DNA from: a virus
Lineage: Duplodnaviria > Heunggongvirae > Uroviricota > Caudoviricetes
Virus record (IMG/VR): IMGVR_UViG_2896595138_000003
DNA: 21,651 nt
Reading direction: 5' to 3' (one strand)
The position numbers and the translations under genes were made by a program. The notes beneath the pieces are model-generated. The model saw only the letters and a program-made list of their open reading frames with translations, was not told where the DNA came from and did no database searches. This document shows positions 16,146 through 20,455 of the stretch, in pieces. The first letter of the stretch is position 1, and the number at the start of each line of letters is the position of its first letter.

Positions 16146-16209
16146 TGAGGTAGCCTGAGTTTAACGGACACTCCTTCCTGAAATAGAATGGCATCAGAAG
16201 GAGCTAATA

Positions 16210-16512
16210 ATGAGCAGAAAAACCCAACGTTACTCTAAAGAGTTCAAAGCCGAAGCTGTCAGAACGGTTCCTGAAAATCAACTTTCGATCAGTGAAGGCG
16301 CTTCCCGATTATCCCTTCCTGAAGGCACTTTAGGACAATGGGTTACCGCCGCCAGAAAAGGGCTCGGTACTCCTGGTTCCCGCACGGTGGCTGAACTGGA
16401 ATCTGAAATTCTGCAACTGCGTAAGGCGTTAAATGAAGCTCGCCTTGAGCGAGATATATTAAAAAAAGCAACAGCGTATTTTGCACAGGAGTCGCTGAAA
16501 AATACGCGTTAA
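16210..16512 (+). CDS. IS600 OrfA, 100 aa
   Basis: One substitution relative to copies A and C (TVPENQ versus TVLENQ). Confidence 0.9.
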   Translation: MSRKTQRYSKEFKAEAVRTVPENQLSISEGASRLSLPEGTLGQWVTAARKGLGTPGSRTVAELESEILQLRKALNEARLERDILKKATAYFAQESLKNTR

Positions 16513-16547
16513 TCGAACAATGGCGACAACAATTTCCCATTGAAGCG

Positions 16548-17366
16548 ATGTGTCAGGTATTTGGTGTATCCAGGAGCGGTTATTACAACTGGGTACAGCA
16601 TGAACCCTCAGACAGAAAACAAAGTGATGAGCGGCTAAAACTGGAGATTAAGGTGGCACATATCCGCACTCGCGAAACATATGGAACCCGGCGGCTCCAG
16701 ACGGAGCTGGCAGAGAATGGCATCATCGTTGGTCGTGACCGACTGGCACGTCTTCGTAAGGAGCTAAGGCTACGCTGTAAGCAGAAACGCAAGTTCAGAG
16801 CGACTACGAACCCGAACCACAATCTGCCAGTTGCGCCAAATCTGCTGAACCAGACGTTCGCTCCTACAGCACCAAATCAGGTCTGGGTGGCGGACCTGAC
16901 GTATGTTGCCACACAGGAGGGATGGTTGTACCTCGCTGGCATCAAAGATGTTTATACGTGCGAAATTGTCGGCTACGCCATGGGAGCGCGCATGACAAAA
17001 GAGCTGACAGGTAAAGCCCTGTTTATGGCGCTCAGGAGCCAGCGCCCACCTGCCGGGCTAATCCACCACTCTGATCGAGGTTCACAGTACTGCGCATACG
17101 ATTACCGGGTCATACAGGAGCAGTTTGGTCTGAAAACATCAATGTCGCGTAAAGGTAACTGTTACGACAACGCTCCGATGGAAAGCTTCTGGGGAACGCT
17201 GAAAAATGAGAGCCTGAGCCACTATCGTTTTAATAACCGGGATGAAGCCATCTCAGTAATACGGGAATACATTGAGATTTTCTACAATCGTCAGCGTCGT
17301 CACTCTCGTCTGGGGAATATCTCCCCGGCAGCCTTCAGGGAAAAATATCATCAGATGGCTGCTTAA
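16548..17366 (+). CDS. IS600 OrfB transposase (DDE), 272 aa
   Basis: Intact ORF; IS3-family DDE transposase, normally expressed as an OrfAB fusion by -1 frameshifting. Confidence 0.9.
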   Translation: MCQVFGVSRSGYYNWVQHEPSDRKQSDERLKLEIKVAHIRTRETYGTRRLQTELAENGIIVGRDRLARLRKELRLRCKQKRKFRATTNPNHNLPVAPNLLNQTFAPTAPNQVWVADLTYVATQEGWLYLAGIKDVYTCEIVGYAMGARMTKELTGKALFMALRSQRPPAGLIHHSDRGSQYCAYDYRVIQEQFGLKTSMSRKGNCYDNAPMESFWGTLKNESLSHYRFNNRDEAISVIREYIEIFYNRQRRHSRLGNISPAAFREKYHQMAA

Positions 17367-17545
17367 AAAAAGAACAAATGGTAGTGTCCGCTATTGCCAG
17401 TACACCTCAGTGGTGAAATAAAACCGGGCACAACACGAAGGCGCATTTCCGGTATCCATAAAGAGTCGGTCTTGTCTGTTAAATTTAAATGGTGGGAGTG
17501 CGCCTCCGGTTGTAAATAACGACATTGCTGTGTGAAGTACCAGTT

Positions 17546-17587
17546 GGCGGCATCGGTTTAATTGCTGGCTGATGTCCGCCCTTTTTA
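17546..17587 (+). terminator. Candidate intrinsic terminator: 9-bp stem (GGCGGCATC / GATGTCCGCC with one bulge), 16-nt loop, then CTTTTT
   Basis: Read from sequence; the loop is longer than typical, so moderate at best. Confidence 0.35.
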
Positions 17588-17730
17588 AAGTGAATTTTGT
17601 GATGCGGTGAATGCGGCTCAGCGCACGCGGAACAGTTAAAACAGTAAGGAAAATCCCTTATTCCGGCGTTAATTGTTAACTGGTTAACGTCACCTGAAGG
17701 CACCAGGCACCGCATCAACAAAGTTCACTT
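17587..17730. promoter_or_regulatory. Pair of about 22-bp imperfect inverted repeats (AAGTGAATTTTGTGATGCGGTG ... CACCGCATCAACAAAGTTCACTT) separated by about 100 bp, upstream of the Rha operon
   Basis: 20 of 22 positions complementary with one indel; the interval also contains two GTTAAC palindromes. Confidence 0.4.
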
Positions 17731-17752
17731 CGGTGATGAAAGGAAAGAGAAA

Positions 17753-18397
17753 ATGTTGAATGTAGCTATTGAAAACCAGAACGGGTGGAATTATAGTGCA
17801 CCTGCACCTCATAAAACGGGTGCCGGGATTGCTACCCCGAAGTCATTCACGGCGCATAACCGCGCTCAGGCGGTTTTTTTATACGTAATGCACAGCCACA
17901 TTCAAATTATGGTGGGGCGTGCGGGGCAGTCGCAAGACTGGCCGGGTTCCGTGATGACCGGTTGTAGCAACCCTGTACGTCTCACCACCCATGAGATTGC
18001 TACCTCCGGTGGTGAGTTAATCAAATTCATCGCGGAGGCTGCCATCATGGCTACTACCCTTTCTCACCCTTGTGTAACCGTAGAAAACGGTCGCGCTGTC
18101 ACTACGTCTGTTGCGGTTGCAGAGTTCTTCCACAAACGACACGACAATGTGTTACGTGCCATCGCAAATATTGAATGCTCAGATAAATTTACTGCCCTCA
18201 ATTTTGAGGCGAGCGAATACACCGACTCAACCGGGCGCAAACTCCCAATGTACCAAATCACCAAAAACGGCTTCGTTTTCCTGGTTATGGGATTCACTGG
18301 CAAAAAAGCCGCTGCATTCAAAGAAGCCTACATTGCTGAGTTCGACCGCATGGAGGCCGAACTGCGCCAGAATAACCCCCACCTGCTGACAAGATGA
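17753..18397 (+). CDS. Rha-family phage regulatory protein (pRha domain in the C-terminal half); alternative start at ATG 18047 with a GGAGG site would give a 116-aa Rha-only protein
   Basis: Motif KRHDNVLRAIANI...GRKLPMYQITKNGFVFLVMGFTGKKAAAFKEAYIAEFDRME is typical of the pRha domain; the N-terminal 98 codons have no recognised similarity. Confidence 0.7.
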   Translation: MLNVAIENQNGWNYSAPAPHKTGAGIATPKSFTAHNRAQAVFLYVMHSHIQIMVGRAGQSQDWPGSVMTGCSNPVRLTTHEIATSGGELIKFIAEAAIMATTLSHPCVTVENGRAVTTSVAVAEFFHKRHDNVLRAIANIECSDKFTALNFEASEYTDSTGRKLPMYQITKNGFVFLVMGFTGKKAAAFKEAYIAEFDRMEAELRQNNPHLLTR

Positions 18398-18597
18398 TTC
18401 CGGGTGATGGTCGCACTCTGGTTGTTCACTTCGACAAATTCGGCAATGTCGAATTCACCGAAACCGTTCCTGATGGCGCACTGGTCTGTACCCTGGAGAC
18501 TTTCCGGTTTTATCTGGAAAAACAGGGATGGACTCTTGTTAACCGGGGCGCAATTAAAAATATGACTGTGGAACAATTACTCAAAATTCATTGTTGA
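18394..18597 (+). CDS. Hypothetical small protein, 67 aa, translationally coupled to Rha (ATGA overlap)
   Basis: ORF with start overlapping the Rha stop; no recognised family. Confidence 0.5.
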   Translation: MIPGDGRTLVVHFDKFGNVEFTETVPDGALVCTLETFRFYLEKQGWTLVNRGAIKNMTVEQLLKIHC

Positions 18598-18607
18598 GGA
18601 CGCAATA

Positions 18608-18796
18608 ATGGAGACGTTATTACCAAACGTTAATACGTCTGAAGGTTGTTTTGAAATTGGTGTCACTATCAGTAACCCTGTATTTACTGAAGATGCCATT
18701 AACAAGAGAAAACACGAACGGGAGCTATTAAATAAAATATGCATTGTTTCAATGCTGGCTCGTTTACGTCTGATGCCAAAAGGATGTGCACAATGA
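18608..18796 (+). CDS. Hypothetical small protein, 62 aa
   Basis: GAGGA ribosome-binding site 8 nt upstream; its stop overlaps the next start (ATGA). Confidence 0.45.
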   Translation: METLLPNVNTSEGCFEIGVTISNPVFTEDAINKRKHERELLNKICIVSMLARLRLMPKGCAQ

Positions 18797-19067: not shown

Positions 19068-19194
19068 CATGATTACCAGTTATGAAGCCACTGTTGTAAC
19101 TACTGATGACATTGTTCACGAGGTTAATCTGGAAGGAAAGCGTATTGGCTACGTGATTAAGACAGAAAATAAAGAAACCCCATTCACTGTGTGA
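19068..19194 (+). CDS. Small ORF (41 aa) whose stop codon is formed by the first bases of IS600 copy C; probably 3'-truncated
   Basis: AAGGAGAAAAAC then ATG; the TGA at 19192-19194 is the IS600 terminus TGAGG. Confidence 0.3.
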
Positions 19195-19234
19195 GGTGTA
19201 CTGGCAATAGCGGACACTACCATTTGTTCTTTTT

Positions 19235-20053
19235 TTAAGCAGCCATCTGATGATATTTTTCCCTGAAGGCTGCCGGGGAGATATTCCCCAGACGAGAGTG
19301 ACGACGCTGACGATTGTAGAAAATCTCAATGTATTCCCGTATTACTGAGATGGCTTCATCCCGGTTATTAAAACGATAGTGGCTCAGGCTCTCATTTTTC
19401 AGCGTTCCCCAGAAGCTTTCCATCGGAGCGTTGTCGTAACAGTTACCTTTACGCGACATTGATGTTTTCAGACCAAACTGCTCCTGTATGACCCGGTAAT
19501 CGTATGCGCAGTACTGTGAACCTCGATCAGAGTGGTGGATTAGCCCGGCAGGTGGGCGCTGGCTCCTGAGCGCCATAAACAGGGCTTTACCTGTCAGCTC
19601 TTTTGTCATGCGCTCTCCCATGGCGTAGCCGACAATTTCGCACGTATAAACATCTTTGATGCCAGCGAGGTACAACCATCCCTCCTGTGTGGCAACATAC
19701 GTCAGGTCCGCCACCCAGACCTGATTTGGTGCTGTAGGAGCGAACGTCTGGTTCAGCAGATTTGGCGCAACTGGCAGATTGTGGTTCGGGTTCGTAGTCG
19801 CTCTGAACTTGCGTTTCTGCTTACAGCGTAGCCTTAGCTCCTTACGAAGACGTGCCAGTCGGTCACGACCAACGATGATGCCATTCTCTGCCAGCTCCGT
19901 CTGGAGCCGCCGGGTTCCATATGTTTCGCGAGTGCGGATATGTGCCACCTTAATCTCCAGTTTTAGCCGCTCATCACTTTGTTTTCTGTCTGAGGGTTCA
20001 TGCTGTACCCAGTTGTAATAACCGCTCCTGGATACACCAAATACCTGACACAT
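19235..20053 (-). CDS. IS600 OrfB transposase, 272 aa
   Basis: Intact; differs from copy B at one residue (AMGERMTKE versus AMGARMTKE). Confidence 0.9.
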   Translation of the reverse strand: MCQVFGVSRSGYYNWVQHEPSDRKQSDERLKLEIKVAHIRTRETYGTRRLQTELAENGIIVGRDRLARLRKELRLRCKQKRKFRATTNPNHNLPVAPNLLNQTFAPTAPNQVWVADLTYVATQEGWLYLAGIKDVYTCEIVGYAMGERMTKELTGKALFMALRSQRPPAGLIHHSDRGSQYCAYDYRVIQEQFGLKTSMSRKGNCYDNAPMESFWGTLKNESLSHYRFNNRDEAISVIREYIEIFYNRQRRHSRLGNISPAAFREKYHQMAA

Positions 20054-20088
20054 CGCTTCAATGGGAAATTGTTGTCGCCATTGTTCGA

Positions 20089-20391
20089 TTAACGCGTATT
20101 TTTCAGCGACTCCTGTGCAAAATACGCTGTTGCTTTTTTTAATATATCTCGCTCAAGGCGAGCTTCATTTAACGCCTTACGCAGTTGCAGAATTTCAGAT
20201 TCCAGTTCAGCCACCGTGCGGGAACCAGGAGTACCGAGCCCTTTTCTGGCGGCGGTAACCCATTGTCCTAAAGTGCCTTCAGGAAGGGATAATCGGGAAG
20301 CGCCTTCACTGATCGAAAGTTGATTTTCAAGAACCGTTCTGACAGCTTCGGCTTTGAACTCTTTAGAGTAACGTTGGGTTTTTCTGCTCAT
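20089..20391 (-). CDS. IS600 OrfA, 100 aa
   Basis: Identical to copy A OrfA. Confidence 0.9.
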   Translation of the reverse strand: MSRKTQRYSKEFKAEAVRTVLENQLSISEGASRLSLPEGTLGQWVTAARKGLGTPGSRTVAELESEILQLRKALNEARLERDILKKATAYFAQESLKNTR

Positions 20392-20455
20392 TATTAGCTC
20401 CTTCTGATGCCATTCTATTTCAGGAAGGAGTGTCCGTTAAACTCAGGCTACCTCA

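Follow-up and report, generated by a model that had tools for sequence, protein, structure and literature searches.

Between a hairpin with a run of T residues and the start of a long ash/rha reading frame, the virus-derived DNA analysed in the current work (21,651 nt, referred to as the window) contains two arms of ≈22 nt which are inverted copies of each other and lie ≈100 bp apart. The question raised by this arrangement is whether the arms act as DNA or as RNA, and what either would do for the neighbouring genes. The initial, sequence-only reading of this locus had placed three explanations side by side, these being twin operator sites, a large RNA stem enclosing the 5' leader, and the terminal repeats of a miniature transposable element.

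The terminator and the arms in the window

The elements of the locus are listed below, with the evidence from which each was obtained given in brackets.

17492-17586, + strand: homologue of KilS, the DicF-related sRNA of the Rac prophage, ending at the terminator (alignment with MG1655 kilS, b4833)
17546-17586, + strand: G+C-rich terminator hairpin (17546-17580) and T-run (sequence, terminator scan, minimum free energy fold, covarying relatives)
17588-17609, + strand: 5' arm of helix P1 (repeat search, fold, RNAalifold consensus, pair counts)
17610-17707, + strand: core enclosed by P1, including a GAAU junction (RNAalifold consensus, pair counts, 42 homologues)
17708-17730, + strand: 3' arm of helix P1, with A17717 bulged (repeat search, fold, RNAalifold consensus, pair counts)
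17741-17755, + strand: Shine-Dalgarno sequence AAGGA (17741-17745) and ATG at 17753, the start of the long ash/rha frame (open reading frame list)

The hairpin is formed by the arms GGCGGCATC (17546-17554) and GATG-T-CCGCC (17571-17580), which are followed by a C and then by TTTTT (17582-17586). It is also reported by the terminator scan, and the minimum free energy RNA fold lengthens it to 13 pairs. In relatives of the locus, hairpin and T-run are preserved through compensatory changes, for example GGTGGC...GCCACC as opposed to GGCGGC...GCCGCC.

When positions 17492-17586 were aligned with MG1655 kilS (b4833), 86 of the 103 aligned columns were found to be identical, including the first 43 nt of the alignment, and the T-run coincides with the 3' end annotated for KilS, which aligns to 17586 (alignment A1). 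KilS is an sRNA derived from the 5' UTR of kilR and verified by northern blot, and a discrete, Hfq-associated KilS RNA of ≈98 nt has been shown only for E. coli K-12 (PMC8175672). In its permissive mode, Rfam places the DicF model (RF00039) at 17531-17581 with 28.6 bits (E 4e-4), which is below the gathering score of 48; for comparison, the same model scores 76.7 bits on dicF of the Qin prophage and 39.1 bits on Rac KilS. The layout is that of a DicF-type RNA, with a 3' hairpin and U-run, in a lambdoid early-left operon and upstream of the division-inhibitor gene dicB. Because the hairpin is aligned with that of KilS, whose 3' end is the T-run, it is, as judged from the sequence, the intrinsic terminator of a prophage sRNA of the KilS/DicF type. 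Its first description as merely terminator-like was therefore borne out by the alignment with the 3' ends of both KilS and DicF.

The left arm starts one base past the T-run. The arm sequences are AAAGTGAATTTTGTGATGCGGTG (17587-17609) and CACCGCATCAACAAAGTTCACTT (17708-17730), and pairing of 17588-17609 with 17708-17730 gives 22 bp, consisting of 21 Watson-Crick pairs and U17595-G17723, with A17717 bulged; an ungapped repeat search splits this pairing into two pieces. The earlier estimate of 22-bp arms complementary at 20 of 22 positions was thus about right, while the second arm, which had been placed ≈20 bp before the ribosome-binding site, was measured to be separated by ≈10 nt from the Shine-Dalgarno sequence and by 22 nt from the ATG. 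Among local inverted repeats with arms within ≈200 nt, this pair is the top-scoring one in the window, its score of 17.5 exceeding the best-of-window score of all 30 dinucleotide shuffles (mean 13.15, sd 1.35, maximum 15.5). The RNA fold of 17585-17732 has an energy of -58.3 kcal/mol (z = -7.0), and none of 200 shuffles folded as well.

The enclosed domain and its homologues

Relatives of the unit were gathered by pattern scans of viral contigs and of genome contigs. On genome contigs the core pattern produced mostly chance matches in G+C-rich genomes, and matches were kept only if a second motif was present within 260 nt. The resulting alignment (A2) contains 42 distinct sequences, each with both core motifs, originating from E. 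coli, Shigella flexneri, E. albertii, E. ruysiae, Citrobacter, Lelliottia, Pantoea and prophage contigs. On A2, the consensus fold predicted by RNAalifold has five helices, namely P1, formed by the arms, and the following four helices of the core.

17612-15/17622-25, + strand: P2
17628-31/17662-65, + strand: P3, enclosing a variable hairpin
17666-73/17683-90, + strand: P4
17693-97/17703-07, + strand: P5

Across A2, 95.2% of the cells are paired, as compared to 31-43% when the partners are slid by one to three columns, and 22 of the 38 pairs have changed on both sides; none of the five measures used was attained in any of 500 shuffles. For P1, 13 of the 18 scored pairs are compensatory and 95.9% of the cells are paired, over 19 distinct arm haplotypes; one of these, CAACAGACCTTGCAATGCAGTG / CACTGCATTGCAAGGTCTGTTG, bears little likeness to the arms of the window, yet is fully paired. 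P3, P4 and P5 each covary through compensatory changes. The pairing that is not Watson-Crick allows the strand to be distinguished, as the P1 cells in question are G-U on the + strand in 66 cases and A-C in 9, and therefore the structure has been selected in RNA of the + strand, on which dicF, kilS and the downstream genes are encoded. When seven homologues were folded individually, P1 was predicted with high probability for each of them. The arms therefore form helix P1 of a domain with five helices in the + strand RNA, and of the three initial explanations it is the large RNA stem enclosing the 5' leader that is supported by the covariation and the G-U bias. A duplex of ≈20 bp or more is retained in 38 of the 42 homologues, the remaining four being distant ones with a P1 of only ≈9-10 bp, which is too short for RNase III. 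In A2 the core is near-invariant and the arms are the variable part; since the core is this constant while the four distant P1 helices are so short, it probably does more than supply a cleavage stem.

It had been proposed at the outset that related genomes be searched for further copies of the unit. The unit is conserved, the region being matched by megablast in 4665 of 5426 complete E. coli genomes, and among the matches listed many span only 17544-17727, that is, almost exactly the unit of terminator and arms. Many of the E. coli matches listed also begin and end at 17544 and 17727. MG1655 contains two homologous places, dicF-dicB in Qin and kilS-kilR in Rac. In the relatives that were examined, this 184-bp unit is always located between a DicF/KilS-type terminator and a small prophage gene (e.g. 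dicB or kilR). In most copies the left arm follows the DicF/KilS-type T-run so directly that a separate promoter could not be accommodated, and the leader unit is reached only by read-through of the sRNA terminator. On the other side, a start codon with a Shine-Dalgarno sequence follows the right arm at 14-48 nt across relatives, the genes found there (loci of the comparison being given by their L-numbers) being as follows.

dicB: 14 nt after the right arm
kilR: 19 nt after the right arm
ash/rha frame: ≈22-23 nt after the right arm (window, L001, L015, L077, L153)
hydrophobic peptide of 36-38 aa (L031, L036, L084, L224)
other small open reading frame (L072, L125, L140)

The unit is consequently a leader element of small prophage genes, those that have been characterised being cell-division inhibitors. 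It behaves as a conserved linker between variable flanks (a DicF-type or KilS-type 5' part before it, and dicB, kilR or rha after it), and may serve as a recombination joint in prophage mosaicism. The peptides of 36-38 aa (L031 at ≈9950, L036, L084 and L224), such as MIREHEVPAWHRFCIKVALLVVAVAWVSFEFCWGAS, follow divergent copies of the leader, where they replace dicB or kilR, and look like small membrane toxins.

In comparison with Qin dicF-dicB, a base-for-base alignment is obtained through the terminator, the T-run, the two arms and the core (83% identity over the unit), the order of sRNA, terminator, P1-closed domain and ribosome-binding site is the same, and the 3' end generated there by RNase III, a position taken from a secondary citation, maps into the left arm. 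The two loci differ in that the sRNA of the window is of the KilS type rather than DicF (28.6 versus 76.7 bits), with a loop and 5' sequence unlike those of DicF, in that the bulged A of the window P1 is absent from the Qin P1, and in that the next gene in the window is the ash/rha frame, dicB lying ≈880 bp further (18608-18796). The sRNA region of Rac kilS-kilR (Bar et al. 2021, PMC8175672) is the closest, with the same terminator, P1 arms and bulged A; sieB lies upstream in the intact relatives. The window departs from Rac in its terminator loop and in the variable hairpin of P3, kilR is replaced by the ash/rha module, and the upstream flank is cut at 17409 by an insertion sequence (see below).

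The enclosed domain is matched by a second RNA family. Rfam aligns STnc100 (RF02076) to 17593-17722 with 29.2 bits (E 2e-4, model positions 22-154 of 206), and thus falls short of the gathering score of 47. In this alignment, the inner portions of the arms correspond to the stem that closes the STnc100 consensus, whereas model positions 155-206, the terminator part, are unmatched, the right arm being followed instead by the ribosome-binding site and ATG. The window carries the motifs GGUGAAU (17606-17612) and CACCNGGAGGCACCNGGCAC (17691-17710), and it shares with STnc100/PasD the order of the helices, the closing stem GGUG...CACC, the GAAU junction and the terminal hairpin CACCNGGAGGCACCNGG. 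Unlike STnc100, the leader has a P1 of 22 bp instead of ≈7-8 bp, a different P2 sequence, and neither a promoter nor a terminator of its own. Canonical STnc100 copies are situated in the late region, near Q, tRNA genes, stx and lysis genes, whereas the leader is in the early-left region beside DicF/KilS, and every tested member of the leader class matches the model below threshold, at 28-37 bits (E 2e-4 to 0.035), as opposed to 77-132 bits for canonical copies. A search of the literature retrieved no paper linking STnc100 with DicF. Canonical STnc100 copies were also seen in tandem arrays, with four copies in ≈1.1 kb (L012, 2265-3380) and four pattern matches in ≈4 kb (L090), and those in L005 (8044-8560) and L012 are located beside clusters of tRNA genes. 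A put-type antiterminator as in phage HK022 (putL/putR) was considered and rejected, as the immunity region of HK022 (24000-32000) has no STnc100-type Rfam match; the core motif is likewise absent from that interval at up to three mismatches.

The IS copies and the rha module beside the unit

The surroundings of the unit in the window comprise the following elements.

16146-17409 and 19192-20455, in inverted orientation: two IS3-family copies of 1264 bp each, 100% complementary to each other
17753-18397, + strand: long open reading frame with the Pfam domains Phage_ASH (residues 14-104) and Phage_pRha (residues 117-201)
17769-17797: promoter-like site TTGAAA-17-TATAGT, fitting an isrK start at 17804
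17804-17880: isrK, inside the long frame (Rfam, 64.8 bits, above threshold)
17905-17992: C4 antisense RNA, inside the long frame (Rfam, 79 bits, above threshold)
18608-18796: dicB (Pfam DicB, 135.8 bits)

The two 1264-bp copies, which we take to be IS600, bracket a prophage fragment of 1782 bp. The left copy, whose end at 17409 precedes the 5' end of the KilS-like sequence by 83 nt, has removed sieB together with any early-left promoter, and read-through transcripts may be rare in the copy of the unit present in the window. IS copies are likewise present in a related Shigella flexneri locus (L153), which matches the fragment with 89% identity.

The rha module meets the upstream DNA at a mosaic joint between ≈17727 and 17802. 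Within 17791-18003 of the presumed Rha frame, isrK and C4, both of which pass the Rfam thresholds, overlap Phage_ASH, which passes that of Pfam, and either the Ash-like frame, or the isrK/C4 RNAs, or both may be real. The better start for rha is the ATG at 18047, located after GGAGG (18034-18038), with the Rha domain beginning only at residue 117 of the long frame. Two short sequences, GGATTGCTAC upstream of C4, situated inside isrK at a below-threshold c4-a1b1 match, and AGATTGCTAC just downstream of C4, are both complementary to the C4 loop GTAGCAACCC, the sites being 17826-17835, 17964-17973 and 17994-18003. This layout is like that of immI in phage P1, GGATTGCTAC and AGATTGCTAC resembling the b1 and b2 target sites. 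Finally, dicB is parted from its usual leader, as the isrK/C4/rha module and a 67-aa open reading frame (18394-18597) lie between the P1-closed leader and dicB.

Proposed processing of the leader and its meaning

The reading that we consider probable is that the terminator of a KilS/DicF-type sRNA is followed by a leader stem, closed by P1 and cut by RNase III, in the early-left operon of a lambdoid prophage of the Rac/Qin type. According to this proposal, transcripts ending at the hairpin and T-run of 17546-17586 would constitute the KilS/DicF-type sRNA, while in RNA that reads through, 17588-17609 pairs with 17708-17730, and P1 closes a conserved five-helix domain of ≈140 nt, a distant relative of the prophage RNA STnc100/PasD. 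RNase III would then cut P1 and thereby part the sRNA from the downstream message, as at the homologous spacer between dicF and dicB in Qin. By such a cut, the sRNA would be released carrying a short extension at its 3' end, and the downstream mRNA would gain a new 5' end ≈35 nt before its start codon, just ahead of the ribosome-binding site.

A duplex of 22 bp corresponds to about two helical turns, the usual minimum for RNase III. For a stem expected to have at least ≈20 bp, P1 provides 22 bp with one G-U pair and one bulge. Stems processed by RNase III are found in the lambda N leader, at the early intercistronic sites of T7 and on the flanks of 16S and 23S rRNA. As in the window, a long duplex is formed in these systems by distant segments of one transcript and is placed between functional units, and cutting separates the units and reshapes the downstream 5' leader. 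The window differs from them in that there is no sequence relationship, in that its cleavage is one that we infer, and in that a conserved five-helix fold is enclosed by the stem.

The second line of evidence comes from Qin, where the 3' end of the 72-nt form of DicF is reported, by way of a secondary citation, to be made by RNase III (PMC5069750). On the annotated coordinates of dicF (1649382-1649434), a further 19 nt leads to 1649453, which corresponds to L003:1954, to column 20 of A2 and to U17600 of the window; the putative equivalent of the 72-nt end is thereby located in the middle of the left arm, with a precision, given the secondary citation and the annotation coordinates used, of ≈5 nt. 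Because P1 measures about two helical turns and this DicF end maps into its left arm, P1 is proposed to be an RNase III processing stem. In Table S1 of Gordon 2017, position 1649470 in the dicF-dicB spacer is listed as RNase III-dependent, with 0 reads in the wild type versus 26 in the rnc mutant (PMC5371410); this RNA-seq is of coarse resolution, with sites at least 400 bp apart, and the support for Qin amounts to these 26 reads. For Rac, the sole entry of that table (1418510) is upstream of KilS and outside P1. The possibility that the arms are the RNase III site which generates the 190-nt precursor of DicF was rejected, as that site lies upstream of DicF (PMC10448788). According to the same work, upstream dicBF transcripts are undetected in an rnc mutant (PMC10448788).

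Two of the alternatives retain the RNA nature of the unit and assign its function elsewhere. That the STnc100-like core is itself the functional part, as a stable trans-acting RNA or a protein binder for which P1 would be only the closing stem, in line with proposals made for PasD and for STnc100, which is Hfq-associated, appears unlikely to us, and it would be compatible with RNase III processing in the manner of the stems flanking rRNA. The near-invariance of the core next to variable arms agrees with such a role, as do the below-threshold STnc100 matches of all tested leaders and the motifs GGUGAAU and CACCNGGAGGCACCNGGCAC, which are common to the canonical copies; moreover, canonical STnc100 RNAs are expressed, with one copy seen on a northern blot (PMC5331693), and PasD has RIL-seq targets (bioRxiv 10.64898/2026.05.13.724894). 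However, the matches stay below the Rfam gathering score, a promoter has no space between T-run and left arm, the right arm is followed by no terminator, and PMC10448788, PMC8175672 and PMC5069750 report no transcript of the size of the core from the dicF-dicB or kilS-kilR spacers. We deem it quite improbable that the primary role of the stem is translational, the base of P1 being extended by pairing of the C/U tail of the terminator with the purine-rich stretch at the Shine-Dalgarno sequence and a toxic gene being silenced until the stem is cut or melted. The fold of the window does pair CUUUUUA (17581-17587) with UGAAAGG (17737-17743), overlapping the Shine-Dalgarno sequence, comparable extensions are seen in the folds of Qin (with GAGG) and L072, and silencing would suit downstream genes that are cell-division inhibitors or small hydrophobic peptides. 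Yet the extension in the Rac fold involves an AAAA located ahead of the Shine-Dalgarno sequence, with GGAG left unpaired, the folds of L031 and L140 give the Shine-Dalgarno sequence different partners, and the extension pairs are few, weak (U-A, U-G) and taken from predicted folds.

The remaining two alternatives treat the arms as DNA, and the evidence for RNA pairing bears on both. Twin operators, at which a prophage repressor would loop ≈100 bp so as to control the Rha operon, were suggested by the presence of two inverted copies at that distance upstream of a regulatory gene, and a coevolving binding protein could keep both sites alike; the same arms are, however, found beside different repressors, DicA in Qin and RacR in Rac, a DNA site leaves unexplained why arm differences are G-U-compatible 66 times on the + strand and 9 times on the - strand, and covariation in the form of helices (P3-P5) extends to the interior. 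A promoter scan of the + strand over 17200-17760 found none, neither between nor next to the arms, and the rha module is served by a separate promoter-like site (17769-17797) and by C4 antisense control. Because a promoter as well as the isrK and C4 RNAs belong to this module itself, the unit is not to be regarded as an operator of Rha, an idea we consider highly improbable; the placement of the unit upstream of the Rha operon, as first described, holds physically, although functionally the unit belongs to the leader module of sRNA and kil gene. Least probable of all, to the point of being scarcely credible, is a miniature inverted-repeat transposable element of 144 bp. Its terminal inverted repeats of ≈22 bp, typical size and many copies across E. 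coli genomes had made it worth considering, and it is opposed by the single copy in the window, the fixed position of the examined copies, with a DicF/KilS-type terminator preceding and a small prophage gene following them, the left arm abutting the T-run with no duplicated flank, and the lack of an empty site among the relatives. In addition, conservation is higher in the interior than in the variable arms, whereas a transposon would display the reverse. Neither of the DNA explanations offered by the sequence-only reading is thus supported.

Taken as a whole, the feature is most likely the end of a KilS/DicF-type sRNA joined to the processed leader of the next gene, and neither a Rha operator nor a mobile element. 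This arrangement is largely known from the dicF-dicB and kilS-kilR leaders. What is new is a covariation-backed, long-range helix of 22 bp beneath the decades-old RNase III site at the 3' end of DicF, a covarying P1 that is common to Qin, Rac and many other prophage leaders, and an enclosed domain that is a consistent, below-threshold relative of STnc100/PasD. The latter suggests that the STnc100 family is wider than the Rfam threshold captures, and that it also occurs as a cis leader before prophage cell-division inhibitors. Unless the core has a specific partner, this changes the current understanding little. As a further possibility, which we regard as rather unlikely, the core could be a cis-regulatory fold that binds a protein or small molecule and is used twice per lambdoid prophage, once as the late STnc100/PasD and once, with a long stem, in the early-left operon. 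If this were true, one regulatory fold with two uses would gate toxic small proteins (DicB, KilR and the hydrophobic peptides) in the early-left operon, and two RNA families that are now treated as unrelated would be joined.
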